Assembly: GCA_024655865.1 (NCBI GenBank)
Contig: JANLFM010000004.1
Location: forward strand, 19,040 to 83,039
Source of the DNA: Caldisericota bacterium
Lineage (GTDB): Bacteria; Caldisericota; JANLFM01
Direction of reading: 5' to 3'
DNA length: 64,000 bases
The notes below the pieces were generated by a model. It worked only from the letters and a program-made list of their open reading frames with translations, made no database searches and had not been told where the DNA came from. Shown here piece after piece: positions 1,631 to 18,210 of this stretch. Each line of letters begins with the position of its first letter. The first letter of the stretch is position 1. The position numbers and the translations under genes were made by a program.

Positions 1631-1640
1631 GAATTGACCT

Positions 1641-2543
1641 TTAAGCCTTCATAAATTTTGCAAGTTCTTCTTGCCATAAAGGCGCTGGCATAGTTAGAAA
1701 AAGAGTCGAGTAGGAGGGGCGTGGCGCAGGTCGAGATAATTGGAGAGTCTTAATGGGTTCAACCTTTTTAGAAATTTCAGCCAACTGTAAAATAGCCTGT
1801 GCAAATTCATACCAAGAAATCCCGTTCCCTGCATCATCGGTGTAATGGTGAATACCATACCAGCCAGTCTGAATTAAATCAGCGATTGCCCGGGAAAGGC
1901 TTTTGGTGTGCGTCGGAGAGCCTATCTGGTCGTCTACAACCTCCAGGCATTCCTTTTCCCTTGCCAATTTCAAGATCGTAGTGACGAAGTTTTTTCCATA
2001 TTTTCCATAAAGCCAACTTGTGCGCACGATGTAAAAACGGGAACAATGCCACTCTACGAATTTCTCCCCAGCGAGTTTGGTGTATCCGTACCAGTTTATG
2101 GGATTAGGTGGATCCAAGGGGCGGTAAGGGGTTTTCTTCGTGCCATCGAAGACGTAATCCGTGCTGATTTGAACCAGCTCACATTTTTTATCTTCACAGG
2201 CTAAAGCCAGGTTCTGCACTCCTAAGGCGTTAATTGCGTAAGCCAGGTCCCTCTCTACTTCAGCCTGATCCACGTTGGTGTAAGCGGCGCAGTTAATCAC
2301 AATTTGCGGATGAAAATGCTCAATGGCTTCAAAAACTGCCTTGCGGTCAGTAATATCAAGCTCCTGCCTGCCTAAAGGGATTACATCATGCCCCTGGTCC
2401 CTTAAAATTGGGACGAGGTCCTGCCCAAGCATCCCTTTGGCACCGGTGACCATTATCCTCATTATTTGCTCCAGAACCCCTTGCTCTCTTTTTGCAGTCG
2501 TTCCTTTAAGGGCTTCCACCAATGAGAATTGTTCATATACCAC
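1641..2543 (-). CDS. rfbD: dTDP-4-dehydrorhamnose reductase; probable true start at the internal MRIMVTGAKG (~2462), overlapping the rfbB stop
   Basis: Has the MVTGAKGMLG Rossmann motif and RmlD-like length and composition. It is adjacent to rfbB and rfbC. Confidence 0.85.
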   Translation of the reverse strand: MVYEQFSLVEALKGTTAKREQGVLEQIMRIMVTGAKGMLGQDLVPILRDQGHDVIPLGRQELDITDRKAVFEAIEHFHPQIVINCAAYTNVDQAEVERDLAYAINALGVQNLALACEDKKCELVQISTDYVFDGTKKTPYRPLDPPNPINWYGYTKLAGEKFVEWHCSRFYIVRTSWLYGKYGKNFVTTILKLAREKECLEVVDDQIGSPTHTKSLSRAIADLIQTGWYGIHHYTDDAGNGISWYEFAQAILQLAEISKKVEPIKTLQLSRPAPRPSYSTLFLTMPAPLWQEELAKFMKA

Positions 2544-3460
2544 TCCACCGTGCGCCGAATACCTTCCTCAAAGGAAGTAGCTGGGTTCCATCCCAGTTCA
2601 GATTCGATTTTGGTGTTGTCCAAAGCATAGCGAAAATCATGGCCTGGGCGATCGGGGACAAATTCAACCATTTCCTCGCTCTGCCCCATTATTTTCAGCA
2701 CCTCTCGAACAACCTCGATGTTGTGCTTCTCGCATTTCCCCCCTATATTGTAGGCCTCACCAGGCTTTCCTCTCTCCAGGATCAGGTCAATCGCTCGGCA
2801 ATTATCCTCCACGAAAAGCCAGTCCCGGACATTCAACCCCTGTCCATAAACGGGGACCTTCTTTCCCTCAATCAAATTTGTGATCATCAAGGGAATGAGC
2901 TTCTCCGGGAATTGATAAGGCCCATAATTATTCGAGGGTCGAGCAATGCACACTGGAAGCCCATAAGTGGTGAAATAGGATTGAACGAGAAGGTCCGCTG
3001 CTGCTTTGGAGGCGGAGTAGGGAGAACGAGGACGAAAGGGGTCGGTTTCCTTAAAAAGGCCCTCTTCACCCAATGCGCCATAGACCTCATCAGTGGAGAT
3101 ATGGACAAATTTTTTGATCCCGTGTTTCAGGGCTGAATTCAAGAGGACCTGGGTTCCCATAACGTTGGTTTTTATAAAAGGAGCTGCATCCAGAATGGAC
3201 CTATCCACGTGGCTTTCCGCCGCAAAGTGAACCACAGCCTCAACTCCCTCCAGGGCTTCTTCGAGCCTTTCTGCATCTTCCACCCTGCCGTGAACGAATC
3301 GGTATCGGGCCTCATTCTCAATGTCCTTCAGGTTCTCAATGTTCCCGGCGTAAGTCAGGGCATCAAGGTTTACGATTTCCACATCAGGGTGTTTATTTAG
3401 CATGTAGCGGATGAAATTTGATCCAATAAAACCATACCCTCCGGTTACCAGGATTTTCAT
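2462..3460 (-). CDS. rfbB: dTDP-glucose 4,6-dehydratase
   Basis: Begins MKILVTGGYGFIGSNF, carries YSASKAA (YxxxK) and is ~330 aa. Confidence 0.9.
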   Translation of the reverse strand: MKILVTGGYGFIGSNFIRYMLNKHPDVEIVNLDALTYAGNIENLKDIENEARYRFVHGRVEDAERLEEALEGVEAVVHFAAESHVDRSILDAAPFIKTNVMGTQVLLNSALKHGIKKFVHISTDEVYGALGEEGLFKETDPFRPRSPYSASKAAADLLVQSYFTTYGLPVCIARPSNNYGPYQFPEKLIPLMITNLIEGKKVPVYGQGLNVRDWLFVEDNCRAIDLILERGKPGEAYNIGGKCEKHNIEVVREVLKIMGQSEEMVEFVPDRPGHDFRYALDNTKIESELGWNPATSFEEGIRRTVEWYMNNSHWWKPLKERLQKESKGFWSK

Positions 3461-3957
3461 GGCATATCCTCCAATTTAAATTTGGAATGGGGATCGTTCT
3501 CGTGGCGCACCTCATCAACTGGTTCTTTTTTGCCACGCCCAGCGTAGAGGCGATTGGGAAAATTTAGCACCAGTCCATCTTTCCCCCCCACGTTTTTGTA
3601 TGCATGGACCACTCGAGGGGGCACAATCAGGCAAGCAGGCCGCGATTCCCCCAAAAGCAATTTAATATGGAGACCGTAAGATGTAGACTCCGGCCTGTTG
3701 TCCCAGAGATGCACCTCAAAATCAGAGGGCCCGAGGAAAGCGAAAAAATCGCTTTGCTCCAGGTGCTCGTGAGGGCCCCTGGCTATTCCGGGAAGGGTTA
3801 AGGAGATATAGGACATTACCGGGACATATTCCCTTAATCCTGCCTCTTCCAGAAAATCCAGGCGGAAGGTTTCCATAAGCCAACCTCGCTGATCCTGGAA
3901 TTTTGTAACGTCCCACATCACAACTCCTTCAATTTCCAGCTTCTGAATAGGAATCAT
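3457..3957 (-). CDS. rfbC: dTDP-4-dehydrorhamnose 3,5-epimerase
   Basis: Cupin protein of 166 aa, RmlC-like, positioned between rfbB and rfbA. Confidence 0.85.
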   Translation of the reverse strand: MIPIQKLEIEGVVMWDVTKFQDQRGWLMETFRLDFLEEAGLREYVPVMSYISLTLPGIARGPHEHLEQSDFFAFLGPSDFEVHLWDNRPESTSYGLHIKLLLGESRPACLIVPPRVVHAYKNVGGKDGLVLNFPNRLYAGRGKKEPVDEVRHENDPHSKFKLEDMP

Positions 3958-5042
3958 AGCTCCACCTCGCTGTAGTCTCCAACCATTAACCTCAAAGCCC
4001 GATGTTTGTCGTGTCCTTTGATCCTTGCCTGGCGGCCAACCACGCTGTCCTCAATACGCTCCACATTTTCCAGAAAGCTGTTTTCCAGAATTACTGAGTG
4101 TTCTATGTCCACGTGCTTCAAAGTGCACCCGTTACCAATCGAGGTGTAAGGGCCAATGAAGGAATTCTCTACTTGTGACCCTTCTCCGAGAATTGCCGGC
4201 CCTCTGATAGTGGAATCCCGAACTACAGCTCCTTTTTCAATCTGTACCCTCCCGCTTATTGAGGTGTTAATAACTTCTCCCTCAATTTGCCTTTTGGCGT
4301 AAGTATCCAAAACTATGGTGTTCGCTTCTAATAGGTCGTCCTTTTTTCCAGTATCGAGCCACCAGCCCTCCACAATTTTGGGGTAGATTTTGCCTCCGGA
4401 GTTCAAAAGCTCCTGAATGGCATCGGTAATCTCCAACTCTCCACGCCAGGAAGGTTTGATCTTCTCGATTGCTTTGTGGATCTTCGGGGAAAAAATGTAC
4501 ACCCCCACAAGCGCCAAGTTCGAAGGGGGCTCCTTGGGCTTTTCAATTAACCTTTGCACCTTGCCCTGTCCATCCAAAACTGCCACACCAAAAGCCCTAG
4601 GGTCCGGAACTTCTTTTAAGAAGATTACGGCATCGGCTTTCTCCCTCTTGAAAATCTCCATCCCCTCCTGGATGCCTTCCTGCAGTAAATTGTCGCCTAG
4701 ATACATCACAAAGGGGCAATCTCTAAGAAAGGGTTGGGCGATTTTCACGGCATGAGCGAGGCCCGCCGGCTTATCCTGATACACATAAGTAAGCTCCATC
4801 CCCCATTTTGAGCCATCTTTGAGAAAAGCCTTGACGTCCTCCCCTGTCTCCGGGGCGATGATGACCACGGTGTCTTTAATTCCACCCTCTCCCAGATGGC
4901 CGAAGACATAGGAAAGTATCGGCCGATTGGCCACCGGGATTAATTGTTTTGCGGTGGTAAAGGTAAGGGGTCGTAGGCGGGTTCCCTTCCCGCCGCTAAG
5001 AACTAAACCCTTAAATTGATCCATTTCTTCCAACAATGTCAC
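3954..5042 (-). CDS. Glucose-1-phosphate thymidylyltransferase, long form with a C-terminal left-handed beta-helix
   Basis: Has the LSGGKGTRLRPLT nucleotidyltransferase motif. The 362-aa length and C-terminal hexapeptide-repeat region match the archaeal/long type. Confidence 0.8.
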   Translation of the reverse strand: MTLLEEMDQFKGLVLSGGKGTRLRPLTFTTAKQLIPVANRPILSYVFGHLGEGGIKDTVVIIAPETGEDVKAFLKDGSKWGMELTYVYQDKPAGLAHAVKIAQPFLRDCPFVMYLGDNLLQEGIQEGMEIFKREKADAVIFLKEVPDPRAFGVAVLDGQGKVQRLIEKPKEPPSNLALVGVYIFSPKIHKAIEKIKPSWRGELEITDAIQELLNSGGKIYPKIVEGWWLDTGKKDDLLEANTIVLDTYAKRQIEGEVINTSISGRVQIEKGAVVRDSTIRGPAILGEGSQVENSFIGPYTSIGNGCTLKHVDIEHSVILENSFLENVERIEDSVVGRQARIKGHDKHRALRLMVGDYSEVEL

Positions 5043-5079
5043 TCCCTTTTAAATAGTTTAGTAAACTCCTCGGATACTT

Positions 5080-6105
5080 TCATTTTTTGGAAAAACAAAG
5101 CTGAAACCATTTCTGAAGAGTCGTTGTATATTTTTTTAAAATTTTTGCGTTTACAATTTCCTCCTGAGTAATGGAGCCTCTCTTCCCTCTTAAGGCGTGC
5201 CAGATTCCCAGGATGCGGGCAACGGTAATTTTAGGGTCCTCTTTGAACTCCCTTTTGAACAGTGAGGTTAAGAGGATAAAAAGAACTAAGCCTGTGCGAA
5301 GAAAAAGAGCGCACAAAAAATGCAATAATGAATAATTTCTTCTTGCGAAAATTAATGCGTTTCTCGTACCATAATACGTCAGCAGGTAAGAACTTTCAGC
5401 TAGCGTTATACTCCCTTTGTGCCAGACAATTGAATTTGGCTCATAATAAGTTAGCCAGCCCTTTTTTCGCCCCTGTACCATCCAATTAGTATCTTCCCAG
5501 TATAGGAAGTAACTTTCATCCATCAACCCAATTTGATTCAGCGCTTTTACTCGCACTAACAAACTCGCCCCGGTGACAAAGTCCACCGTTTTTCTTTTTG
5601 AGAATTCGTGTTGATCTTTCTGCCCAAAACCAATGTGGCGAGTAACTGCTTTCCAGGGATATACTTTCCCACCTGCATGTTGAATCAAGTCAGGTTGATC
5701 AAAGAAAAAAATTTTGCTTCCTACAAAAGCAGCTTTCTCCTCTTCTTGTGCACATTTTACGAGCATCTTCAGGGACTTAGGCGCAACGATTACATCGTTA
5801 TTAACAAGCCAGATAAATTCTGCACCTTCTTCTATTGCCATTTTTATCCCTACATTGTTTCCACCAGCGAATCCCAGGTTTTTGGGCAACTCTAAATATT
5901 TAATCTTTGAACATTTTAACTTTAAGGTCTCTATGAATTCCCTTAGTTTTTCTCTATCTGCAACATCAGAACTATTATCAATTATTAATATTTGGAAATT
6001 TTCATACTCAAGACCAAGCAAGGAATTAATGCATTGGATGCAATCCTCATGCCGATTAAAATTGAGAACAATTATCCAGGTTAACGGTTCAAATTGTGTA
6101 TTCAC
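5080..6105 (-). CDS. Family-2 glycosyltransferase with C-terminal membrane anchor
   Basis: Carries IIVLNFNRHED...IIDNSSD...NNDV GT-A motifs and a hydrophobic C-terminus. Confidence 0.75.
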   Translation of the reverse strand: MNTQFEPLTWIIVLNFNRHEDCIQCINSLLGLEYENFQILIIDNSSDVADREKLREFIETLKLKCSKIKYLELPKNLGFAGGNNVGIKMAIEEGAEFIWLVNNDVIVAPKSLKMLVKCAQEEEKAAFVGSKIFFFDQPDLIQHAGGKVYPWKAVTRHIGFGQKDQHEFSKRKTVDFVTGASLLVRVKALNQIGLMDESYFLYWEDTNWMVQGRKKGWLTYYEPNSIVWHKGSITLAESSYLLTYYGTRNALIFARRNYSLLHFLCALFLRTGLVLFILLTSLFKREFKEDPKITVARILGIWHALRGKRGSITQEEIVNAKILKKYTTTLQKWFQLCFSKK

Positions 6106-7214
6106 TTTAACCTCTCGTACTCCTTTAAAATACTACGAGCCGTATTTTCCCATGAAAACATTTTCCACCTTTGAAGCCCTTTTTCCTTTAAGGTCTGGCG
6201 GGATGAGGAGTTTAAAAGCAGGGACTTGACGCCCTCTCCCCAGGCATCCAGATTATCAGGTGGAAGGAGTAGGGCGGCATCTCCCAGAACCTCTGGCAGT
6301 GAGGTACAATTTGAGGCCACAACAGGGAGGCCGTAGGACATGGCTTCCAGGGGAGGAAGGCCAAAGCCCTCCGAGAGGGAGGGGAAGAGGAAAAGCAGGG
6401 CATTTTTATAAAGAATGCTCAGCTCCTCCGGACTCACATAACCCAACAAAAGCACCAGCTCAGGATCAGTCTTTGATAATTCCAGCTGGAATTCCTGGTA
6501 ATCAGGGTCCACTGCCCCAGCTATAACCAGCTTTAAGCTGGGAAAGGACTTCTGAAGTTCCCGAATCAAGCGCACGAGGAGAGCTACATCTTTGTGGAAG
6601 CGGACGTTTCCACAGTAGAGAAGGTAATCCCTTAAATTGTATTTTTCCAGGAAAGTGCGCTCCCTCTCCGGGGGAGCTTCAGGTGGAGGCTCCACCCCAT
6701 TATAAATAACTCTGATTTTTTCCCCGGGAATCCCCATTTCAATGAGGCTTTGAGCGGTGAACCGGGAAACCGCAAAGACCGCTTCAGCCCTTCTCGAAGC
6801 TCTCCTCACCATTATCTGGAAATAAGCTCTGGCCGCCGGGGAATACTGCTGAGGAAAGCGCAAGGGAGTTAGGTCATGGATGGTTACGATCAATTTTCCG
6901 CGCCAGAAAAAAGGAGCGTTGAAGTGGGGAACATGGAACAAGAAGATGTTCCTGTCCCGAAGCAGGCGGGGTATTTCCCAGTGCTCTTTCAGCCTCAGGG
7001 GCGGGGTTGAACATTCCAAAAATTGGAAGTTCTCTTTCTTGGGGAGGAACCTTTGAGCAAAAGGCGGACCAAAGATGGTGAATTTTAAGCTTGAAGGAAG
7101 TTCAACTTTAGAAAAACCAGTGAGCAGACCTTTAATATGTGCTCCAATACCACTGTATTTTTCCCTTAAGAAGCGGGCATCCAGAGCAATGTGAAACTCC
7201 CTCTCGCTACTCAT
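6102..7214 (-). CDS. Family-4 (GT-B) glycosyltransferase
   Basis: C-terminal EGFGLPPLEAMSYGLPVV motif. Confidence 0.8.
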   Translation of the reverse strand: MSSEREFHIALDARFLREKYSGIGAHIKGLLTGFSKVELPSSLKFTIFGPPFAQRFLPKKENFQFLECSTPPLRLKEHWEIPRLLRDRNIFLFHVPHFNAPFFWRGKLIVTIHDLTPLRFPQQYSPAARAYFQIMVRRASRRAEAVFAVSRFTAQSLIEMGIPGEKIRVIYNGVEPPPEAPPERERTFLEKYNLRDYLLYCGNVRFHKDVALLVRLIRELQKSFPSLKLVIAGAVDPDYQEFQLELSKTDPELVLLLGYVSPEELSILYKNALLFLFPSLSEGFGLPPLEAMSYGLPVVASNCTSLPEVLGDAALLLPPDNLDAWGEGVKSLLLNSSSRQTLKEKGLQRWKMFSWENTARSILKEYERLK

Positions 7215-8323
7215 AGGCTCTCGATCACGTCTTCCCAGCGGGAAAGAAAAACATCCTGAGAGAAGTCATTTACGATCCTCTCTCGAGCGAATGAGGAAAA
7301 TTCCTCCCTTCCCTGGCGGAATAAATCCATGATGGCCTTGGAAAGTTCCATTGCGTCCTTGGGGGAAATGATCAATCCCGTCTGGCCGTGCAAGTTATAG
7401 AAGCTCGTTCCCGTTCCAATTTCCGTGGTGATCACGGGAACCCCGCAAGCCATAGCCTCACAGGCCACAAGGCCAAAGGCTTCGCTCCGAGCGATGGAGG
7501 GCAGAACGAAGACGTCTGCTCCCCGGTAAACAGAAGGGAGCTCTTCGTCCTTCACGGGAGGGATAAAGACCACTCTCTCTTCCAAGTGAAGTTCTTTAAC
7601 CAGGGAAAGCAGTTTTGGCTTTCCCTCTCCGTCCCCCACGAGGACCACTCTGACATTCTGGGGAAGAGAGGGGACGGCCTTGATCAGGTATTCCAAACCC
7701 TTGTAGTAAGCGAATCTCCCCACGTAGAGAACGATGGAGAACCCTTCCTGCCGAATTTGGGAAAGGATGGGGTGCACAGGACCCTCAGGGGTGAAAAAAT
7801 CAGTATCCACGGCCAGGGGAATGATGCGCACCTTTTCCTTGAACTGGGAAAGGATGGGAGAAGTTTGGGCATAGTTGGGGGAGGTGGCGACGATGTATTT
7901 AGCCCTGGAAAGGAAAATCCGGGTTTCCAGGTCGTAGAAGGGTTTGAGGGCTTTCTGTCTCACCACATCGGAATGGTAGAGAACGATTTTGGGAGGGTTA
8001 GCGTTGACTATGAGTTCGGCCAGCTCCCCTGCGGGATCGGGAAAGTGGTGGATGATGAGGTCAGCTTCCCTGGAAAGCTTTTTGTAGAAGCTAGGAAAGG
8101 AGAAACTGAAGGGGGCGCTGGAGACATAAAAAGAAGTCTTCACTAATTGCAGGTGAACTCCATTTAATTCCTTTTCCTCTGTCTTCGGCCCACAGGCCAA
8201 AACGGTAATAGAATATCCTTCTTGCGCCAATCCCTCCCCTAACCTCTGGACGACCTTCTCCACCCCTCCGATGTGAGGGAAGTAGAGTTTATTCACCTGA
8301 AGGACGCGGGGTTTTTTGTCCAT
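7211..8323 (-). CDS. Family-4 (GT-B) glycosyltransferase
   Basis: Carries SEAFGLVACEAMACGVPVI and is translationally coupled to its neighbours. Confidence 0.8.
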   Translation of the reverse strand: MDKKPRVLQVNKLYFPHIGGVEKVVQRLGEGLAQEGYSITVLACGPKTEEKELNGVHLQLVKTSFYVSSAPFSFSFPSFYKKLSREADLIIHHFPDPAGELAELIVNANPPKIVLYHSDVVRQKALKPFYDLETRIFLSRAKYIVATSPNYAQTSPILSQFKEKVRIIPLAVDTDFFTPEGPVHPILSQIRQEGFSIVLYVGRFAYYKGLEYLIKAVPSLPQNVRVVLVGDGEGKPKLLSLVKELHLEERVVFIPPVKDEELPSVYRGADVFVLPSIARSEAFGLVACEAMACGVPVITTEIGTGTSFYNLHGQTGLIISPKDAMELSKAIMDLFRQGREEFSSFARERIVNDFSQDVFLSRWEDVIESL

Positions 8324-8339
8324 TATTCCGGGGCCGCGA

Positions 8340-9410
8340 TCAAGGTTTTCCCAGCCTCACTTCCGTCTCGTCCCCCACGTGCAGCCTCAAGCCAGGAATT
8401 CCATTTTCCTCCTGTACGATCGTCGCCCTGCGCCCCACGATGCTCGATTCCAGACGGGGAATGTTCACCACTTGGGCCTCCTTCATCAGGATGCTGAAGG
8501 CAATCCCAGAATTTTTAACCAGAGCGTCCTCCCCGATGCTGGTGAAGGGCTCAATCAGCGAATCTTCAATCCTGGCGTTTTTCCCGATGATCGCCGGGCC
8601 CCGGATCTCGCTTCTTTCCACCCTGGCCCCCTCCTCCACGGTCACCCTTCCCGTGATCTTGCTCTCTCTGATTTCTCCTTTGAGGGAAAAGCAAGCTTGA
8701 AGGTCAAGAAGCAGGCGGTTGGCCTCCAGGAGGTCTTCCTTCTTCCCCGTATCCAGCCAGAAGCCCTGGGCAATCCTGCCCTTCACCTGGAAGCCTTTTT
8801 CCACGAGGAACTGGATGGCGTCCGTGATCTCGTACTCGTTCCTTGAGGAAGGCTTGAGGGAATCGATGGCTTCCTGCACCGCACCTGAGAAAAAGTACAA
8901 GCCGATGATGGCGTAAGGTGAGGGAGGCTCCTGGGGCTTTTCGATCACTTTGAGGATTCTGCCCTTTTCGTCCATAAGGGCCACGCCAAACCTTCGGGGA
9001 TCGGGGACTTCCTTCAGGTAAATCAGGGCATCGAGGCCCAATTGGAGGAATTCCTGGGCGCCAGGGAGGAAATCCTCCTCCAGGAGGTTGTCGCCCAAGA
9101 AAAGCAGAAATGGGTCATCCTTAAGGAAGGGATGCGCCACCTTCACGGCGTGAGCGATGCCCAGGGGTTTCTCCTGATAGATGTATTGGAATTTGGGTCC
9201 GTAGCGCTCCTCGATCTCCTGCCCTGTTTCCGGGCTCAGGACGAAGCCGATTTCCTTGATCCCTGCTCTTTCCATTTTTTCCAGGGCGTAATCCAGGATG
9301 GGCTTGTTGGCCACAGGGATCAGATGCTTGGGCATGGAGTAGGTCAGGGGTCTTAATCTCGTTCCCTTCCCCGCACAGAGAATCAGAGCTTTCAAATTCT
9401 CGCCTTTCAT
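8340..9410 (-). CDS. Second long-form sugar-1-phosphate nucleotidyltransferase (paralogue of 3954-5042)
   Basis: Carries LCAGKGTRLRPLT and a C-terminal LbH domain. It aligns along its length with the other paralogue. Confidence 0.8.
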   Translation of the reverse strand: MKGENLKALILCAGKGTRLRPLTYSMPKHLIPVANKPILDYALEKMERAGIKEIGFVLSPETGQEIEERYGPKFQYIYQEKPLGIAHAVKVAHPFLKDDPFLLFLGDNLLEEDFLPGAQEFLQLGLDALIYLKEVPDPRRFGVALMDEKGRILKVIEKPQEPPSPYAIIGLYFFSGAVQEAIDSLKPSSRNEYEITDAIQFLVEKGFQVKGRIAQGFWLDTGKKEDLLEANRLLLDLQACFSLKGEIRESKITGRVTVEEGARVERSEIRGPAIIGKNARIEDSLIEPFTSIGEDALVKNSGIAFSILMKEAQVVNIPRLESSIVGRRATIVQEENGIPGLRLHVGDETEVRLGKP

Positions 9411-9614
9411 CGTTGATCCATTATAGCGAATCTGAAAACTCCCTGTGTATTAGTTCACTATATGCGATACGCCTTCCGTCTTCCTAAAACTTAAAAGGCA
9501 TTGGCCGAAGAATATTCCCAGGAGTTACCGATATGCTTATCTCATACGGATAATTGATTTTTTTATTCCTTATGATACAATTTTGCGTAGAAATTATATC
9601 ATAGAGGATATAAT

Positions 9615-10928
9615 ATGGACAAAGAGATTATAAAGCAAGTTATAGTCGAGTCTCAGGAATCCAAATTGCCTGAGATCGTCCCCAGGGATATTGAGATTCC
9701 TCTTTCTTCCCAAAAGATCATTACGATTACGGGGCCGAGAAGGGTTGGGAAAACATATCTTGTCTTCTATTCAATACGCAATCTTATCGAGCAAGGAATC
9801 CCAAGGGAAAGGATTATATACCTCAACTTTGATGACCCCAGGCTTTTGCCCTTTTCCGCAAAGGATGCGGAACTTATTCTTGAAGCCTATCAAGAACTCT
9901 ATCCTGAATATAGGGAAGAGACTAATTATATCTTCCTTGATGAAATCCAGAACGTGAAAGACTGGGAGATAGGGATAAGAAGGCTGTACGATACCAGAAG
10001 ATTTAGAATATTTCTCACGGGTTCTTCCTCGAAATTGTTGGGCAAGGAGATAGCAACTCAGTTAAGGGGAAGGGCATTAAGCTATGAACTCCTCCCCTTC
10101 TCTTTTAAAGAGATTCTCTGGGCAAAAGGAATAAAGGATTATAAAAGTCTTTTCTACTCTCAAGAAAGGTTCCGCATAAAGAAATATCTGGAAGAGTATT
10201 TAGAAATGGGAGGGTTTCCCGAGGTTGTCTTAGAGGATGCCTTAGACATAAAGATAAGGACATTGAGAGAATATGTGGAGACCATATTTTTTAGGGATTT
10301 AGTGGAACACTACAATATCAAAAACCAATTGCTATTAAGAGAGCTTATCAGATACCTTAGCACGAACACCGCTTCTATATTCTCCTTAAATTCTTTCTAC
10401 AAATGGATAAAAGAGATCTATCACATCACCCCGAGGACCCTATTGAACTATATTGGTCATCTTGAGGACATAGGGCTTTTCTTTTTCACAAGGAGGTTCT
10501 CCTTCTCTTTAAAGGAGCAGGCCAAAACTCTAAGAAAGTGCCATATTGTAGATAATGGCATAAGACTCGCCTATGGATTTAGGTTCAGCGAAGACAAAGG
10601 CAAAAATCTGGAAAACTCTGTCTTTTTGGAACTTGCCCATAGAAAAGTCCGGAATCCCTTTATGGAGATATTTTACTGGCAGGATTACAGAGGAAAAGAA
10701 GTAGACTTTGTAGTTACAGAAGGTAAAAGAGTGACATCCCTCATTCAGGCCTGCTTTAAAATTGAGGATATTAAAGCTAAAGAGAGGGAAATATCATCTC
10801 TTATTAAGGCTTCAGAGGAATTGAGATGCGCCAACCTTCTTGTAATAACCCTCGACTACGAGAAAGAAGAAGTAATTAATGATAAAAGACTAACCTTTAT
10901 GCCCTTCTGGAAGTGGGCTTTATTATGA
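9615..10928 (+). CDS. AAA+ ATPase of the AAA_14/DUF4143 (COG1373) family with a C-terminal PD-(D/E)xK-like domain
   Basis: Has the Walker A motif GPRRVGKTY and Walker B motif IFLDEIQ. The C-terminus carries ...YWQDYRGKEVDFVV...K, typical of the restriction-endonuclease-like DUF4143. GC is ~42% against ~56% in the flanks. Confidence 0.75.
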   Translation: MDKEIIKQVIVESQESKLPEIVPRDIEIPLSSQKIITITGPRRVGKTYLVFYSIRNLIEQGIPRERIIYLNFDDPRLLPFSAKDAELILEAYQELYPEYREETNYIFLDEIQNVKDWEIGIRRLYDTRRFRIFLTGSSSKLLGKEIATQLRGRALSYELLPFSFKEILWAKGIKDYKSLFYSQERFRIKKYLEEYLEMGGFPEVVLEDALDIKIRTLREYVETIFFRDLVEHYNIKNQLLLRELIRYLSTNTASIFSLNSFYKWIKEIYHITPRTLLNYIGHLEDIGLFFFTRRFSFSLKEQAKTLRKCHIVDNGIRLAYGFRFSEDKGKNLENSVFLELAHRKVRNPFMEIFYWQDYRGKEVDFVVTEGKRVTSLIQACFKIEDIKAKEREISSLIKASEELRCANLLVITLDYEKEEVINDKRLTFMPFWKWALL

Positions 10929-11080
10929 ATAAAACTCTGATGATGAGCGCTCTGCTTCGGCTGCCACTTGAAAAGGGCTCTGAAAGGGAATTCACCCCCT
11001 TACCTGTTTGATGTCCATTTTCGGAGGAAGGCTCCCTTTAGGCAAAGCTGGAAATTTAGCTTTAGACTTCTCTCCATGAA

Positions 11081-11146
11081 ATGGTATAATTTTGTTCAGT
11101 AGAGTGAACAAAAATGGTACGATTTTGTTCAGTAGAGTGAACAAAA
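11081..11146 (+). promoter_or_regulatory. Two tandem 33-bp units, each containing the palindrome TTGTTCAgtagagTGAACAA, immediately upstream of the second ATPase gene; also contains TATAAT
   Basis: Read directly: atggtataattttgttcagtagagtgaacaaaa followed by atggtacgattttgttcagtagagtgaacaaaa. Confidence 0.4.
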
Positions 11147-11156
11147 TTTAAACGAG

Positions 11157-12557
11157 GTGCCTATGATAGATTTAGAGCGATATAACCCATGGTGGATTAG
11201 GAGTGAGGGTATGGAGACCGATCCTCAATGGCGAGCCTTCAGGGATTCGCGCCTTCGTTGGCAGCCGAAAATCCTTCAGAAATTAGATTTACAAAAAGAA
11301 GGGGTTTATACTCTCCGTGGTCCCCGTCAGGTAGGGAAAACCACGCTGATTAAGATCTGGATCTCTCAACTCCTTGAAAATCACGTTGACCCCAGGGCAG
11401 TGTTTTATTACTCCTGTGATCTTTTAAACGACAAAAAGGAACTTTTTGCGGTTCTGGAACAATATCAAAACATCTCTCTTAATCGAGGGTTCAAGCATCG
11501 CTATATCTTTCTTGATGAGGTAACCCTCATTGAGGACTGGCAGCACGCTGTGAAGCAGGCAGTTGACCTGGGATGGATGCAAAATACCACAATCCTGGCA
11601 TCTGGTTCTTCGGCCATAGACCTGCGCAGGGGTGCTGAGAGGATGCCTGGGCGTCGTGGGCGAGCGGAAAAGTTAGACTGGGTGCTTATGCCTCTTTCCT
11701 TTGGAGAATTCTTAAAGTATTGCTATCCGGAGCTCCCAACATTAACCATCTCCCTTGATCTTCTTTGTAACGGGGTCCAAATTAAAAATCTCGTTTCCGA
11801 TTGGTTAAGCTTTGCTTTAAGGTTCCAGTTTGCTTTAGAAGAGTATCTCAAAACGGGCGGCTTTCCTCTGGCACTGGAGCGATACTTAAGACAGAGAGAG
11901 GTTGATGAGAGCCTCAGACAGGCCTATCTATCGGTTTTGCGCTCGGATGTGGAAAAATTGCGCCGGAACCGTGGAATCTTGAACAGTCTCCTGGCTCGAA
12001 TAGTGATTACAGAAGGCTCCCCTCAAAGCTGGCAAAACCTCAGTAAAGATGCGGGGATTGGCTCCCCGAACACAGCAATAGATTATGTAGAAATTTTAGG
12101 GGATTCCTTCTTACTTTTTGTTCTCCAGGCCCTGGATCGAAACAGGAAAGCAGCAGAACCAAAAAAGGACAAAAAAATTTATTTTTGCGACCCTCTGGTT
12201 CGAGATGCGATCTCGAAGGATTTGGGTTTACCTGGGCTTCCTCTGGAGCATAAAGTAGAGGCTGCTGTGGGGTTTCATCTAATCAGGCTTTTTGAGAAAA
12301 ACCCTGAGGAAGGGTTATCTCATTTAAACAAAGTTTATTACTGGCGCAATGTTAAGGGAAAAGAAGTAGACTTTGTTGCCCTTTATGAGAAAGGGGTTCT
12401 TCCTCTTGAAGTTAAGTTTCAAGAAAGTATCAACAAAGAAGATTATTCCCTTATTCAGCGCAGTTTCGGTTCAGGCGTAGTGGTCACCAAAAACGTTTTG
12501 GAGCGAAGGGAGGGTATCCTTTTTCTTCCTGCAGCCCTTTTCCTTCAAATGGAGTAA
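11157..12557 (+). CDS. AAA+ ATPase AAA_14/DUF4143 (COG1373) paralogue; likely ATG start at 11163
   Basis: Has the Walker A motif GPRQVGKTT and Walker B motif IFLDEVT. The C-terminus carries YYWRNVKGKEVDFVA...EVK. Confidence 0.75.
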   Translation: MPMIDLERYNPWWIRSEGMETDPQWRAFRDSRLRWQPKILQKLDLQKEGVYTLRGPRQVGKTTLIKIWISQLLENHVDPRAVFYYSCDLLNDKKELFAVLEQYQNISLNRGFKHRYIFLDEVTLIEDWQHAVKQAVDLGWMQNTTILASGSSAIDLRRGAERMPGRRGRAEKLDWVLMPLSFGEFLKYCYPELPTLTISLDLLCNGVQIKNLVSDWLSFALRFQFALEEYLKTGGFPLALERYLRQREVDESLRQAYLSVLRSDVEKLRRNRGILNSLLARIVITEGSPQSWQNLSKDAGIGSPNTAIDYVEILGDSFLLFVLQALDRNRKAAEPKKDKKIYFCDPLVRDAISKDLGLPGLPLEHKVEAAVGFHLIRLFEKNPEEGLSHLNKVYYWRNVKGKEVDFVALYEKGVLPLEVKFQESINKEDYSLIQRSFGSGVVVTKNVLERREGILFLPAALFLQME

Positions 12558-12629
12558 GCGCAGGGCCCGTCCCCAAAGTCAACCTTAAAGTTTATAATTG
12601 TGAGGAAAACAAAACTTAAGGAGAAGCCC

Positions 12630-13667
12630 ATGGTCAAGGTGGTTTTTCTGGCTGGAGGAAGCGGGGAACGCTTCTGGCCTAAAAGTCGAAAAGGGAAGCC
12701 CAAGCAGTTCCTGAAGCTTTTAGGAGAAAATTCCCTCCTCAGGGAGTCCTTCCTGCGCATCCAGGGGTTCGTCCCCGAGGAGGCGGTCTATCTCGTGACC
12801 TATTGGGAGCACAGGATGCTCGCAAGAAAGGAATTGCCCGAGATTCCCGAGGAAAACGTCATAGGGGAACCTATGGGGAGAAATACCGCCGCTGCCATCA
12901 TTCTGGCCTCTTTAATCCTGGACGAGGAAGACATTATGGTGGTCCTTCCCTCAGACCACTACATCCCGGAGGTGGAGAAGTTCCAGGAAACCCTGCGCAA
13001 GGCCATCGTCCTCGCAGAGAAAGGGTATCTTACCACCATTGGCATTCAGCCCTCGCGACCGGAAACGGGCTACGGATATATCGAGGTGGAGGAGGAAATT
13101 CCCGGAGGGTTTAGGGTGAGACGCTTCCGGGAGAAGCCCTCCCGGGAAGTGGCGGAGGAGTTCCTTTCCTCCGGGAGGCACTTTTGGAATTCCGGAATGT
13201 TCATCTGGCGCATCAGCACTTTCAGGGAAGCTGCGCGCAAATATCTCCCCCATACTTACAGTGTGCTCGAAGAAGCAAGCGAATCCTATCAGGACCTGGC
13301 TGCGCTCGCTCGGGCCTACGAACAAATAGAGAGCATCTCCGTGGATTACGCCATCATGGAGAAAGCGGAGAACGTGGCCATGGTGAAAGGGGACTTCCTC
13401 TGGTCGGACGTGGGAAGCTGGCTTTCCCTGGCTGAACTCTTAGGAAAAGGGGGAGCATATGCGGAAAACCCTCACCTGGTTACGGCCAGCGAGGCGGAAA
13501 AATACCTGATTTTGGGGAATACCAAGGAGGTAGCCATTCTGGGCTTGAAGGATGTGGGTTTTATTGAGACCGAGGACGCCATCTTGATCTTGAACCTGGA
13601 AAATGCCCAGGATGTGCGGAAGATCGTGGCCCAACTCAGGGAGAAAGGGAAGGAGCACCTCCTTTAA
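12630..13667 (+). CDS. manC: Mannose-1-phosphate guanylyltransferase (GDP-mannose pyrophosphorylase)
   Basis: Carries LAGGSGERFWP. The RBS AAGGAGAAG lies 5 nt upstream of ATG 12630, and the protein is ~345 aa. Confidence 0.8.
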   Translation: MVKVVFLAGGSGERFWPKSRKGKPKQFLKLLGENSLLRESFLRIQGFVPEEAVYLVTYWEHRMLARKELPEIPEENVIGEPMGRNTAAAIILASLILDEEDIMVVLPSDHYIPEVEKFQETLRKAIVLAEKGYLTTIGIQPSRPETGYGYIEVEEEIPGGFRVRRFREKPSREVAEEFLSSGRHFWNSGMFIWRISTFREAARKYLPHTYSVLEEASESYQDLAALARAYEQIESISVDYAIMEKAENVAMVKGDFLWSDVGSWLSLAELLGKGGAYAENPHLVTASEAEKYLILGNTKEVAILGLKDVGFIETEDAILILNLENAQDVRKIVAQLREKGKEHLL

Positions 13668-14599
13668 TGGCCACCTATCTCGTCACGGGAGGAGCAGGGT
13701 TCATCGGATCGCATCTCGTGGAGCTCCTCCTCGCTTCCGGCCACAGGGTGAAGGTCTTAGACGACCTTTCCACGGGCTCCCTGAAAAACCTTGAGGCTTT
13801 ACAGGACAAAATTGAGTTCTACAAGGGGGATATCCGCTATCCGGAGAAAGTGGCGGAGGCTTTCTCAGATTTAGACGGGGTCTTCCATTTGGCAGCCATC
13901 TCCTCTGTGGAGCGCTCCCTCTTGGAGCCAGAAATCACGCGCGAGGTGAACGTCAGGGGCACCCTCCAGGTGCTCCTCGCCTCCAAAAAGCACCGGGTGA
14001 AAAGGGTGGTCTTCATTTCTTCAGCTTCGGTTTACGGAAATCCGGAGACCTTTCCCATTTCGGAGGAGCAAGAACCGCGCCCCCTTTCCCCTTACGGAGC
14101 AACCAAAGTTGCAGGGGAGGCCCACACCAGTGCCTTTTTCAATTTGGGCTTCCTGGAGACGGTCTCGCTCCGGCTCTTTAACATCTATGGCCCGCGTCAG
14201 GACCCCGCCTCCCCCTATTCCGGGGTGATCAGCAAGTTCCTGGAAGCGGCGGTTTCCGGGAGGGAGCCCGTGCTTTTCGGGGACGGAAAGCAGACTCGGG
14301 ACTTCCTCTACGTGGAGGACGCCTGCCGGGCCATGCTCATTGCAATGGAAAAAGAAGAAGCAGCAGGCCAGGTCTTCAATATCGCCAGTGGGAAGGAAAC
14401 GAGTATTACGGACTTGGGAAAAATCATCTTTTCCCTTATGGGAAAAGATTTTGAGCCTGAGAAGAAGCCGGAAAGGCCTGGGGATATCCGGAGGTCCCTG
14501 GCTTCTATTGAAAAGGCCGAGAGAATCTTAGGATGGAGGCCCCAAGTCTCCCTCGAGGAAGGGCTCAAGAAAACCTTAGAGTGGGTAAAATCCCTCTAA
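13667..14599 (+). CDS. NAD-dependent nucleotide-sugar epimerase/dehydratase (UDP-hexose 4-epimerase-like)
   Basis: Has VTGGAGFIGSHLV and the YxxxK motif YGATKVAGE. Confidence 0.8.
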   Translation: MATYLVTGGAGFIGSHLVELLLASGHRVKVLDDLSTGSLKNLEALQDKIEFYKGDIRYPEKVAEAFSDLDGVFHLAAISSVERSLLEPEITREVNVRGTLQVLLASKKHRVKRVVFISSASVYGNPETFPISEEQEPRPLSPYGATKVAGEAHTSAFFNLGFLETVSLRLFNIYGPRQDPASPYSGVISKFLEAAVSGREPVLFGDGKQTRDFLYVEDACRAMLIAMEKEEAAGQVFNIASGKETSITDLGKIIFSLMGKDFEPEKKPERPGDIRRSLASIEKAERILGWRPQVSLEEGLKKTLEWVKSL

Positions 14600-16854
14600 G
14601 GCAGGGTTTTCAGCTTCTCTAAAATATCCTGGGCGTCCTTGTTCTGAGGATCGAAGCTCAAAAGCTTCTCCGCCAGCTCCTTGGACCTGTTCAGGTATTT
14701 GTTCGCTTCCTCTGTTTTCCCTTCCCCCTTAAGTTTGGCGCCGTAATTGAAGTTGGTCTGGGCTCCTAAAAGAAGGCTGTAATTGCGGTTCTCCGTGGGC
14801 TGGGCGTAGAGCACTCCCTTTTCTGCTTTCTCCACGGCTTTATCCGGTTCCCCAAGTTCGGTGTAGATGGAGGCGAGCTGGAAGTACAGGGGGTAGTCTC
14901 CGGGATCAGCCTGAACCCCTTTCTCGAAGTTCTCCGCGGCTTTCCTTAAGAGCTCCTGACGTTGGTCCGGCTTCTCGGTCGCTTCTTCCTGATAGGAGCG
15001 CCCCAGCATCATATAGACGTTCTCCAGATACATTGTGGTCTTCAAAGCCTCCTGCCACTCTTCCCTGGCCAGGGAGCGGTACTTTTCCTTCAGAGTGGGG
15101 TCCGTGATCCTGCGTGAAAGCTCGTAATAAAGGTTTCCCAGCCCGGAGGTGTGTCCCTCGGTGGCGGTGCGATATCCGGCCTCCCAGGGATTGAGCATCA
15201 CGGCCTGCGAGTAGTTATCTAAAGCCTCGGTCAAAAGCCTGTCCCCCTCCTTAAGTATGGAGTCCTTCTTCTGAGAATCGGTTTCCTTCTGCGCTTGCTG
15301 TTCTAAATATTGGGCGGTGCGCACGGCGGTTTCCCCTCGGCCATAAGCTAAATCGGCAGACATGAAGCGAATGGCCCAGTACCCGGAGGTAAAAAGGATC
15401 AGGGCGCAAACGATGTAAACCAGGTATTTTACCGGAGCGTGAAATTCCGGAAGGAGCTTTCTTGAAGGAGTTCTCGCCTCGTAGACGGGAATTCCCCCTG
15501 AGGGAGCAAGCTCCTTTTTCCCGGCTTTAACTTTGACCGGGGCGAGTTCCATCTGGGAGAGCGCCACGTTGAGCGCCATAAGCATCCAGAAATAGAGGAT
15601 AGTGGGAAGGACGCCGAAGGCCACGAGATTCTGACCCAAATACGCCAGAACGCCCACGGCGATCCCGGCAACCATGGCCTTCCAGTAAGGGTCCAGGGCA
15701 GACGTCCAGGTCTTGAAGGAGGTGACGAAGAAAGTCACGAGCATCCACATATAGACCAGAAAGCCAATTGCTCCCCGCATGATCAGCTCGTCCAGATACT
15801 GGTTGTGCATCCGGTCCGGATTGTTCATAGGTTCAATTAAGGAGTAGCGCAGGTCCTTGAAGGGCGGGGAGGCAATGCGTAGGACATCCGGGCCCACTCC
15901 TAAAATGGGGTAAGCGAGGAAAATAGAAAGGCCTCCCAGCCAGATGTAAAACCGGCTCTGGACCGTTCCTATTCTCAAGATGGAGGAGATGAGGTCGGTC
16001 TTCCACACAAGGTACACCAGGATAAGCACGAAAGCCGCCCCAAAAGCGATCAGCCAGTTCTTGTTCTCCCTGTAGGCCCTTTTGCTTATGAAGAATAAAA
16101 GGACAGGAAGGGAAATCACCAGGCCCACATAGGAGCCCCTGGTCTGAGCAACCACAACGTTGAAGGCAAGAAGGCCAATGTAAACCAGAAGGTAAAGCTT
16201 GAGCTCCAGTTTTGGGGCGTAAAGGAACTTCATCAGGGCAATGGGGAAAAGCATGATGAGAAAGTGAGGGAAGAAGTCCGGGTTCCCCAAAGTGGAGAAG
16301 GGCCTGCCCTTTGAGGCCCAGGAAATCCAGTCCAGGCCAAAGAACTGAAGCGTCCCATAAATTATGGTCACGAGGCCGGACCAGAGCATCACCTGGAGCA
16401 AGCGGTTCACCTGCTCCGTGGTCTTGTACGTGGAGGAGGCAATGAAGAAAAGGAGAATCATATTGGCGATGGTCCAGAAGCCCTCCTGCCTTAAGTAGTT
16501 GCCTAAAAAGCTCACCTCCGGCCTTAAAGAAAAAATGGAGGAAAGAAGCCAGGATAAAAGGACGGCCAGAACCGGCCAGGTCATGGGGGATTTAAGGCGG
16601 TAGAACTCCCTGGTCTCAAAGAGGCGGATCACCCAGGCCAGAGCCACCGGGATGGTCATAATGCGCAAAAATGTCAGCCGGGGAAGGTTAAAGATGTCCG
16701 CCCCCGTGGAAACGGTGAAGATCAGGGGGACGAAAAAGACAATTAAAATCAGGCCCGCTTCGATGACCTTATCGCACCAGTAAACTACTTTTTCCTTCGT
16801 TTCTGGAATGTGCTTCTTTCCGGATTTACCTTTGGCTTTCTTCATTCCCTCCAT
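14596..16854 (-). CDS. Polytopic O-antigen ligase/Wzy-like membrane protein fused to a C-terminal TPR-repeat domain
   Basis: About 12 predicted TM helices in the first ~430 aa, then a soluble TPR-like repeat region (YGRGETAVRTAQYL...). Confidence 0.7.
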   Translation of the reverse strand: MEGMKKAKGKSGKKHIPETKEKVVYWCDKVIEAGLILIVFFVPLIFTVSTGADIFNLPRLTFLRIMTIPVALAWVIRLFETREFYRLKSPMTWPVLAVLLSWLLSSIFSLRPEVSFLGNYLRQEGFWTIANMILLFFIASSTYKTTEQVNRLLQVMLWSGLVTIIYGTLQFFGLDWISWASKGRPFSTLGNPDFFPHFLIMLFPIALMKFLYAPKLELKLYLLVYIGLLAFNVVVAQTRGSYVGLVISLPVLLFFISKRAYRENKNWLIAFGAAFVLILVYLVWKTDLISSILRIGTVQSRFYIWLGGLSIFLAYPILGVGPDVLRIASPPFKDLRYSLIEPMNNPDRMHNQYLDELIMRGAIGFLVYMWMLVTFFVTSFKTWTSALDPYWKAMVAGIAVGVLAYLGQNLVAFGVLPTILYFWMLMALNVALSQMELAPVKVKAGKKELAPSGGIPVYEARTPSRKLLPEFHAPVKYLVYIVCALILFTSGYWAIRFMSADLAYGRGETAVRTAQYLEQQAQKETDSQKKDSILKEGDRLLTEALDNYSQAVMLNPWEAGYRTATEGHTSGLGNLYYELSRRITDPTLKEKYRSLAREEWQEALKTTMYLENVYMMLGRSYQEEATEKPDQRQELLRKAAENFEKGVQADPGDYPLYFQLASIYTELGEPDKAVEKAEKGVLYAQPTENRNYSLLLGAQTNFNYGAKLKGEGKTEEANKYLNRSKELAEKLLSFDPQNKDAQDILEKLKTLP

Positions 16855-16869
16855 ACCCTCCAGTTATTA

Positions 16870-18210
16870 TTATCTTGCTCCCTTTCTGCCCAGCATTAAT
16901 TTAAAGGTCAAAAAGAGCAGGCGCAAGTTAAGCAAAAACGATTGGTTGCGAATGTAGGCCAGATCATATCTCAGCTTGTTTGCCGGGCTGGTCTCGTAAG
17001 TGCCGTAGATCTGGGCCATCCCGGTCATTCCGGGCTTCACCAGAAAGCGCAGGGAGTAACCGGGGACTTCCTTTTCAAATTGTTCCACGAAGACCGGGCG
17101 CTCCGGCCTGGGACCCACCAGGCTCATCTCTCCCTTTAAGACGTTCAAGAACTGGGGAAACTCGTCTACGCGCAGGAGCCTGAGGAAGCGGCCGAAGGGG
17201 GTAATCCTGGGATCCTTCTCCTGAGCGAAGACCGGTCCAGTCTCCTTTTCTGCATCCGGCTTCATGGTGCGAAACTTGATCAAATTGAAAACCTTTCCTC
17301 CCAGCCCCACCCTTTCTTGCTTGAAAAAAATGGGACCGGGGGAAGTGAGCTTAATCCCCAAAGCTGCAAAAAGAAGGAGCGGAGAAAGGACAATTAAAAG
17401 GAGGAGAGCACCGAAAATATCCAGGGCGCGGATCAGGAAGCGATCCGTGGAGGAAACATCCCGCCAGAGTTCTACTATGGGGACGTTCCCTAAGCGGGAG
17501 AAGTTTGAGCTTCCCGTGAGCATTTCATAAAGGGAAGGCACCATAGAGATTTTGACCCCTTTTCTTCTGGCCTCAATTAAAAGGTCGAGAATCCGGGGCG
17601 CGATCTCCGGGGAGGAGAGGATTAAAATCTCCTCCGCTTTTGCTTCCTTTAAAAGTTGATCGCAGGGACCGGGAGGGAAGGCCTTAAGTCCTGGGACCTC
17701 CTCCTGATTCTCACTGATCCAGCCCACAACCTTCACGGAGTCCGTTTTTCCTTCCTCAAGGAAGCTCTGCACCTCATCCCTTTTTCCTAATAAGAGTGCC
17801 TTGGGTGGAGCCAGGGTGCGCTGGAGCAGATGGGAATCGAGCACGCGGAAGAGAGCAGTTAAAAACCAGAGGAACAAATAAGCGGAAATCAGGGTCAAAC
17901 GGGGAAAGGCAAATTCCCTCAGGAGGAAAAGCATCCCTAAGTGCACGACCACAAATACCCCCACGGCCGGCGCCAGCACTAAGAGATGGTCGAAGAAGCC
18001 AAAGTCCTTCTCCATCTCGTAAACTCCAAAGATTGCCAGGATCAGGATGTAGGTCAGGGTGAAAAGGGGAAAGTATCGCAAATAAGGAAGGAAATTGGCG
18101 TAGGGGATCTCCAGGCCGAAGCGCACTACATAGGCCAGGAGGAAGGAGGCGTTGAGAATTATCGCATCCCCCAGAATCAGAAAAAAAAGGCGGTTCTTGC
18201 TCCAGCTCAC
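16870..18210 (-). CDS. Polyprenyl-phosphate glycosyl-phosphotransferase (WbaP/EpsL-type priming sugar transferase)
   Basis: C-terminal bacterial sugar transferase motifs (KFRTM...DEFPQFLNVLKGEMSLVGPRPERP) follow an N-terminal TM bundle. Confidence 0.85.
   Translation of the reverse strand: MSWSKNRLFFLILGDAIILNASFLLAYVVRFGLEIPYANFLPYLRYFPLFTLTYILILAIFGVYEMEKDFGFFDHLLVLAPAVGVFVVVHLGMLFLLREFAFPRLTLISAYLFLWFLTALFRVLDSHLLQRTLAPPKALLLGKRDEVQSFLEEGKTDSVKVVGWISENQEEVPGLKAFPPGPCDQLLKEAKAEEILILSSPEIAPRILDLLIEARRKGVKISMVPSLYEMLTGSSNFSRLGNVPIVELWRDVSSTDRFLIRALDIFGALLLLIVLSPLLLFAALGIKLTSPGPIFFKQERVGLGGKVFNLIKFRTMKPDAEKETGPVFAQEKDPRITPFGRFLRLLRVDEFPQFLNVLKGEMSLVGPRPERPVFVEQFEKEVPGYSLRFLVKPGMTGMAQIYGTYETSPANKLRYDLAYIRNQSFLLNLRLLFLTFKLMLGRKGAR

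Follow-up and report, generated by a model that had tools for sequence, protein, structure and literature searches.

The stretch of DNA analysed here is 64,000 nt of contig JANLFM010000004.1 (positions 19,040 to 83,039; assembly GCA_024655865.1) from a Caldisericota bacterium. The whole stretch will subsequently be referred to as the window, and coordinates refer to it unless another locus is named. Within a surface-polysaccharide locus the window carries two adjacent genes for AAA_14 ATPases, and their presence there raises the question of what they are, how they arrived and what their products may do. Gene 1 (9615-10928, + strand) encodes a protein of 437 residues with an AAA_14 ATPase domain, a lid, a winged helix (residues ~238-311) and a C-terminal domain predicted to adopt the PD-(D/E)xK fold (residues ~328-437). 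Gene 2 (11163-12557, + strand) encodes 464 residues with an AAA_14 ATPase and a DUF4143 domain. Its open reading frame (ORF) is listed from 11157, and the likely start is the ATG at 11163, which has a GAGG ribosome-binding site upstream and an N-terminal NPWW motif that is kept in homologues. The two genes are ordinary members of the catalogued candidate family PDC-S01 (COG1373; PF13173 with PF13635). They are two separately acquired single-gene cassettes, mobile and dispensable, in the gap between the divergent promoters of the polysaccharide locus, and they probably serve in defence.

The family assignment is carried by profile matches and motifs. Both proteins exceed the Pfam gathering thresholds (27 bits for AAA_14 and 28.1 bits for DUF4143), with AAA_14 (PF13173) matched at 137.2 bits in gene 1 and 89.9 bits in gene 2, and DUF4143 (PF13635) at 64.1 bits (residues 227-373) and 60.3 bits (residues 264-421) respectively. 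The Walker A motif reads GPRRVGKT in gene 1 (residues 40-47) and GPRQVGKT in gene 2 (residues 53-60). The Walker B residues, in an hhhhDE pattern, are D109/E110 and D118/E119. The PADLOC PDC-S01 profile PDLC04787 is matched nearly end to end, by gene 1 over positions 20-407 at 3.3e-106 and by gene 2 over positions 16-406 at 5.4e-37, out of 412 positions. An earlier note, made by a model from the letters of this DNA, had described two AAA_14-DUF4143 proteins with Walker A and B motifs, and this description is confirmed. It had further called them uncharacterised tandem paralogues, which is correct in part. They belong to the same family, yet evidently do not form a duplicated pair because the proteins are only ~28% identical; and PDC-S01 is without demonstrated function but has been catalogued, both as COG1373 and in PADLOC. 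The window holds no third copy, the ORF at 48421-49734 (also 437 residues) being unrelated. NCBIfam gave no match for either protein, a sequence search of the PDB returned nothing meaningful, and no functional study was found in the literature on DUF4143, COG1373, AAA_14 or PF13173.

PDC-S01 was predicted from its embedding in loci of BREX, DISARM or type I restriction-modification (RM) systems ('guilt by embedding'), and its candidates are mostly 'solo' single genes, embedding being no requirement for membership (bioRxiv 10.1101/2024.01.29.577857). It has been described as the fourth commonest defence candidate in prokaryotes, an ATPase fused to a PD-(D/E)xK domain with validation pending, and published counts reach up to tens of thousands of systems (NAR 2026, gkag225). 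At E <= 1e-3 the family comprises 11,945 clusters at 50% identity. On plasmids it is found in 412 of 72,556 cases, and in phage records in 23 of 50,697, the latter mostly unannotated metagenome fragments; a search of viral contigs returned 40 distant relatives and no close one. The possibility that the two are phage genes was rejected, since close relatives are absent from viral contigs and phage records are few. In 9 of 80 metagenome loci the family is represented twice within a few kb, often in tandem, the second copy being quite divergent (27-39% identity to gene 1), and the clustering of unlike copies is therefore recurrent and no peculiarity of this window. Loci with such a second copy are L141, L147, L153/L154, L156, L157, L164, L171 and L191.

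The relatives of this genome show the site in several states. In the nearest genome, a Caldisericota metagenome-assembled genome (MAG; locus L014), the site is empty, with window 7395-9425 and 12611-18000 both aligning and 199 bp between them. Locus L013 has gene 2 only (87% identity). By blastn, window 8339-9504 corresponds to L013 8601-9766 and window 10936-13698 to L013 9773-12536, which defines the gene 1 cassette as 9505..10935 (+ strand), a segment of 1431 bp with a G+C content (GC) of 0.384 that is missing from L013, where ~9 bp stand in its place. Both genes are present in L010-L012. In L134, gene 1 (92% identity) is accompanied by one of the operator units described below, and gene 2 has been cut down to a 29-codon remnant. 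This remnant (L134:2111-2200; MIDLERYNPWGISKVYYWRNPAALFLQLE) is in frame and is built from three pieces of the original gene. Same-site copies in relatives are 92-96% identical and the pattern of presence and absence tracks relatedness. An order of events in which gene 2 was gained, gene 1 was gained and gene 2 then decayed in one branch fits these observations. The boundaries of the gene 2 insertion are not definable, the intergenic DNA of L014 being too diverged.

Outside this site, a homologue 91% identical to gene 1 lies in a sugar-metabolism locus of a 36%-GC genome, between the genes for fructose-bisphosphate (FBP) aldolase and a LacI regulator. Another, 81% identical (L003), lies in a 29%-GC genome between two type III-B Cmr modules. 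At the latter locus (L003:1587-21317) the homologue adjoins a Csx3 gene and both type III-B (Cmr) CRISPR-Cas modules are complete. The DNA common to the homologues at L001 and L003 is limited to the gene, ~62 bp upstream and ~5 bp downstream, and the homology begins at 9551-9553 of the window. It is the combination of empty, single, double and decayed states at one site with homologues in unrelated contexts that identifies the genes as mobile, dispensable cassettes, and the same states bear out the proposal in the earlier note of an insert in a variable surface locus. A heptamer of the uninterrupted site, G(T/C)GCTCT (L013:9767-9790), flanks the gene 1 cassette of L134 left and right (374-390 and 1925-1940), and the pair could be a target-site duplication. 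The left copy has been lost from the window and from L010 through a deletion of ~115 bp.

Palindromes are found immediately upstream of each gene. In gene 1 a promoter scan predicts a promoter at 9554..9581 (+ strand), with a -35 element TTGATT, a 16-nt spacer and an extended -10 element TG-A-TACAAT (TGATACAAT). This promoter moves with the gene, as it falls within the DNA homologous to the L001 and L003 copies. It is overlapped by a 13-nt inverted repeat at 9571..9603 (TATGATACAATTT-N7-AAATTATATCATA), matched at 12 of 13 positions, with the -10 element inside the left arm. This candidate operator contains the sequence TATGATA-N19-TATCATA, for which 0.00 occurrences are expected by chance in the window. 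Its arms are perfect over 12 nt in L134 and imperfect in L001 and L003. A second inverted repeat at 9593..9614 (ATTATATC-N6-GATATAAT), with 8-nt arms that are 100% complementary, covers the GAGGA ribosome-binding site before the ATG; L001 retains it, and in L003 it contains a single mismatch.

The upstream region of gene 2 begins with a leader (10936..11078, + strand) that also precedes gene 2 in L013, where gene 1 is missing, and that contains no Rfam family and no tRNA. The leader is followed by two tandem 33-bp units (11079-11111 and 11112-11144, + strand) of 94% identity, each formed by a -10-like element (TGGTATAAT or TGGTACGAT) and then a palindrome. In the promoter scan the TATAAT of the first unit, with a TG upstream, ends at 11090. 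The two palindromes, which are again candidate operators, lie at 11090..11113 (TTTTGTTCA-GTAGAG-TGAACAAAA) and 11122..11147 (ATTTTGTTCA-GTAGAG-TGAACAAAAT) and have arms of 9-10 nt. The sequence TTGTTCA-N6-TGAACAA within them occurs 2 times in the window against 0.01 expected. In L013 both copies have a T-to-G change in one arm that is mirrored by an A-to-C change in the opposite arm, and L010 holds a one-arm intermediate of this change. The 6-nt spacer (11099-11104 and 11132-11137) is GTAGAG in the window and L010 and CTCTAC in L013 and L134, the arms being palindromic throughout; the reverse-complemented spacer suggests that the whole small palindrome was inverted, or that template switching took place. 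In another context, beside an IS110 fragment, a homologue 58% identical to gene 2 is preceded by two copies of these arms at a distance of 33 bp, and the spacers there are unrelated. Homologues at 45-49% identity differ in their inverted repeats, which are arranged around a similar ATGGTA element.

The association of the family with inverted repeats extends beyond these loci. Perfect inverted repeats were counted in a non-redundant set of 56 upstream regions (100 nt each) of family members taken from the metagenome scan. Arms of at least 8, at least 9 and at least 10 nt were found in 29, 19 and 13 of these regions respectively, compared with means of 4.6, 1.5 and 0.4 in dinucleotide shuffles (n=56), with 1, 0 and 0 inside coding sequence (n=56) and with 11, 9 and 4 upstream of neighbouring genes (n=99). 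For arms of at least 8 nt this corresponds to 52% of the family upstream regions vs 11% for neighbouring genes (Fisher p = 5e-8). The family repeats are rich in AT, with an arm GC of 0.23, and their centres lie at a median of 32 nt before the ATG. They were considered as terminators and rejected as such because a T-rich tail is present in only 5 of the 29. The repeat sequences differ by subclade, and at least 10 loci have a TTTCC/GGAAA core in common. Loci with the TTTCC...GGAAA core are L138, L140, L147, L157, L169, L184, L185, L188, L197, L201 and L212; other subclades have common TTATCTCT...AGAGATAA or AGTACAAT...ATTGTACT palindromes. This is the pattern expected if each protein recognises its own operator, the protein being the putative binding partner. 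The palindrome upstream of gene 1 and the two 33-bp units upstream of gene 2 had both been pointed out in the earlier note and are present as described, and the suggestion that each gene has its own operator-like repeats gains from the co-variation of the arms and from the family-wide excess.

The full-length AlphaFold model of gene 1 has a predicted local distance difference test score (pLDDT) of 90.2 and a predicted template modelling score (pTM) of 0.90, from 103 sequences. In a Foldseek search the top solved structure is archaeal Orc1/Cdc6 on origin DNA (2qby_A, E 2.7e-7, 377 columns), and the next matches are to ORC, Cdc6, RFC and NLR/STAND proteins including CED-4. With Orc1/Cdc6 as the best structural match, the N-terminal three quarters of the modelled protein are assigned as an AAA+ core, a lid and a winged helix. 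This likeness is one of architecture and not of membership of the initiator family. Residues invariant in the clades of both genes are those of Walker A and B, a GR pair, T275, Y279, K308, D313, E362 and D364, and of these T275 and Y279 are located in the predicted recognition helix.

The C-terminal part of gene 1, modelled separately, has a pLDDT of 83 overall and above 90 in the core. It matches McrC (6ut7_G, E 6.8e-4, TM-score 0.51, 14% identity; also 6hz4 and 7vsr), Hjc, EndoMS and Card1. The predicted core has an alpha-beta-beta-beta-alpha-beta order, with helix 328-346, strands 350-356, 362-369 and 372-379, helix 386-403 and strand 408-412. DUF4143 has been assigned to the PD-(D/E)xK superfamily (PMC3424549). 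A nuclease fold for gene 2 is suggested by its Pfam match and by alignment, and here the motif is complete (E366...D403...E416-V-K418), with E416 and K418 conserved at 90% or more in the gene 2 clade. In gene 1, E333 and D364 are present, but beta-strand 3 reads LIQAC instead of ExK. Throughout its clade this position reads LIQ(A/V)(C/S/T), and Q378, R391 and E392 are invariant. In 51 sequences of 54-96% identity, E333, N334, E362, D364, Q378, R391 and E392 show no or almost no variation. A C-terminal nuclease motif, GKEVDFVV...K, had been claimed for both proteins; it stands for gene 2 and not for gene 1, and modelling likewise supports the fold in gene 1, with matches to McrC and Hjc, but in a clade without (D/E)xK. 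The active site of this clade may have been rearranged or lost, and the domain may cut by way of Q378, R391 and E392, or may bind DNA alone. Permutations of the active site do occur in the PD-(D/E)xK superfamily, for example of the Cfr10I type.

The neighbourhood of the pair consists of sugar genes on both sides. To the left (737-9410, - strand) is an operon of glycosyltransferases, dTDP-rhamnose genes and nucleotidyltransferases. Its first gene, which served as a synteny anchor, encodes an NTP_transferase (8340..9410, - strand; PF00483 at 4e-49) that is 92% identical to a protein of the Caldisericota MAG A05DMB09. To the right (12600-14599, + strand) are a ManC-like gene and an epimerase gene. 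The ManC-like NTP_transferase gene (12630..13667, + strand) has its own TATAAT promoter just past gene 2; its probable start is the ATG at 12630 (MVKVVFLAGG) and not the program-listed GTG at 12600, and the promoter, which follows immediately after the gene 2 stop codon, is kept in the empty-site relative L014. Beyond the epimerase lie genes for a Wzy-type polymerase/ligase and a priming sugar transferase and further sugar genes, and from 30 to 64 kb the window contains housekeeping genes. The pair thus occupies the gap between two divergent operons, antiparallel to the left one and parallel to the right one, and the earlier statement that it is transcribed opposite to the flanking operon applies to the left side and not to the right. 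Two fusion ORFs were observed in the window, one at 18264-20804 (846 residues; nucleotidyltransferase with phosphoglucomutase/phosphomannomutase) and one at 25062-27500 (812 residues; starch/glycogen-synthase-like glycosyltransferase with a GalT/HIT-type domain). Apart from one match at chance level, scanning the region for Rfam families and tRNAs yielded nothing, and neither an RNA gene nor integration at a tRNA is supported there.

The GC of gene 1 is 0.39 and that of gene 2 is 0.45, and the flanks have 0.52-0.54 with a peak of 0.56-0.57. Gene 1 therefore does lie below its flanks as had been noted, at 0.39 and not ~42%, and the ~56% given for the flanks is reached at their peak only. At third codon positions (GC3) the two genes have 0.45-0.46 vs 0.63-0.71 in the flanks. 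The GT2 glycosyltransferase genes at 737-1630 and 5080-6105 are equally low, with a GC3 of 0.38 vs 0.63-0.71 in their neighbours, and for this reason the polysaccharide locus itself is regarded as a horizontally exchanged mosaic. The relatives L010 and L013 have other glycosyltransferase sets at the position of these two genes.

In the mechanism proposed here, a dimer of the protein would use the winged helix to bind the palindrome of its own gene and would repress transcription of that gene, and this autorepression would keep a potentially harmful nuclease scarce. Each gene does bring in a predicted promoter of its own, which is overlapped by, or lies ahead of, a palindrome moving and co-varying with that gene. 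The trigger would probably be invading phage or plasmid DNA, leading to ATP-dependent assembly on DNA and a switching on of the nuclease domain, an activation loosely comparable to the AAA+ motor that drives the McrC nuclease. This full model of an ATP-driven nuclease that binds DNA, represses its own gene and acts on invading DNA is on balance somewhat likely to be correct, and the family assignment and horizontal acquisition are much more certain than it is.

Several observations weigh against a role in defence or against parts of the mechanism. One randomly chosen PDC-S01 representative gave no protection of E. coli B against T4, T5 and T7 (bioRxiv 10.1101/2024.09.26.614923). Of 137 neighbours of homologues only about a tenth match defence or toxin-antitoxin models, the neighbours being mixed. 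The window contains no defence island, the neighbours being polysaccharide and housekeeping genes, and an association with defence islands is not borne out at this locus. Palindromes downstream of a -10 element could form an RNA hairpin in the 5' leader, and that a protein binds them is something that we infer. Finally, the gene 1 clade is without ExK, and the profile-profile alignment between the two clades ends before beta-strand 3 of the nuclease core.

This last point is also what favours one of the two main rivals, in which gene 1, and possibly both genes, would encode an ATP-dependent DNA-binding protein whose nuclease fold is dead and which acts as a regulator or sensor. Sequence-specific DNA binding is indicated by the winged helix and by the cognate palindromes. 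However, the near-invariance of the seven residues named above in 51 sequences suggests a site kept by selection, the superfamily is known for the permutations already mentioned, and the motif of gene 2 is complete; this explanation is considered unlikely. The other main rival is that of selfish, self-mobilising cassettes, whose ATPase-nuclease and palindromes would serve a homing- or transposition-like spread of the gene itself and not protection of the host. It would account for the tight single-gene unit (the gene, ~60-110 bp upstream and ~5 bp downstream), for near-identical copies in unrelated genomes and contexts, for the possible 7-nt target duplication around the L134 cassette, for the second divergent members in the flanks of 9 in 80 loci and for a very large and diverse family. 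Nevertheless, the insertion sites, in polysaccharide, sugar-metabolism and CRISPR loci, have no common target sequence; the junctions have no terminal inverted repeats and neither protein has a transposase or integrase domain by Pfam; the target duplication is a single case with one mismatch; and after insertion the copies appear to be vertically inherited, as judged from their identity at the same site in relatives. Self-mobilisation is thus thought to be quite unlikely.

A related and equally doubtful proposal is that the palindromes double as recognition or insertion sites, the family then being one of sequence-specific, ATP-dependent endonucleases without a methyltransferase partner. If it were true, the genes would be self-propagating single-gene elements or a new class of site-specific restriction factor, and the tight cassette ends, the possible 7-nt duplication and the clustered divergent copies would all follow from the activity of the protein itself.

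The earlier note had likened the pair to addiction as well as defence modules. A role in stabilising the locus, as a toxin-antitoxin or addiction module, would be in keeping with autoregulated promoters and a potentially toxic nuclease, which are typical of such modules, and AbiE and other toxin-antitoxin genes do lie near some homologues. Against this, there is no partner or antitoxin ORF, the small ORFs between the genes being unsupported; each gene stands alone in some relatives; and gene 2 has decayed in L134 and both genes are missing from L014 with the flanks intact. Because of this natural loss and decay, seen in L013, L014 and L134, and the missing partner gene, addiction is very unlikely. 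An obligate two-gene system was also rejected, as each gene occurs alone in relatives. The least credible alternative is that the proteins belong to the polysaccharide pathway of the host, as regulators or enzymes. The genes do lie inside the locus, in the same direction as the ManC-like and epimerase genes, and among the 137 neighbours of homologues there are several glycosyltransferases (GT2 four times, NTP_transferase twice). Nevertheless, close relatives with identical flanking gene content do not have them, their homologues are mostly found in unrelated contexts, and the ManC-like gene has its own promoter; such a role is highly improbable.

The pair matters beyond this locus, since PDC-S01/COG1373 is among the most abundant candidate defence families of bacteria and archaea. 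The natural allele series at one site shows that the two genes are dispensable cargo, and the high-confidence model provides a domain order of Orc1/Cdc6-like ATPase, winged helix and nuclease fold. The travelling, co-varying palindromes suggest sequence-specific DNA binding and autorepression, which may explain the failure of the heterologous defence test. One large clade, which includes gene 1, is without the canonical nuclease motif. As far as the literature found shows, neither the cognate palindromes nor this clade form part of the published description of PDC-S01.

Among known systems, the STAND/NLR antiviral ATPases (Avs-like) similarly join an NTPase switch to a nuclease effector, and NLR proteins and CED-4 are among the structural matches of gene 1. 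The proteins described here differ from them in having no repeat-type sensor domain and a C-terminal nuclease, and by Pfam are AAA_14 and not NACHT or NB-ARC. Archaeal Orc1/Cdc6 has the same order of AAA+ core, lid and winged helix. Orc1/Cdc6 proteins have dyad-symmetric binding sites beside their own gene, to which the palindromes beside the genes described here may be compared. However, the present proteins have an additional C-terminal domain of nuclease fold, are bacterial, dispensable and horizontally moved, and lie in a region with no sign of a replication origin.

In McrBC, as in the present proteins, an AAA+ NTPase is coupled to a nuclease of restriction-endonuclease fold, and McrC chains are the best matches of the gene 1 C-terminal domain. 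The likeness is at the level of the fold only (TM-score and identity as given above). McrBC consists of two proteins, the GTPase McrB and McrC, whereas here both activities would reside in one chain, with an ATPase that is Orc1/Cdc6-like and not McrB-like, no N-terminal DNA-binding domain of the McrB type and no McrB-type Pfam match. Compared with PDC-S01 itself, the two genes differ in not being embedded in a BREX, DISARM or RM locus, and they agree with it in the near full-length match to its profile, in the architecture of an ATPase joined to a PD-(D/E)xK domain and in their single-gene organization.

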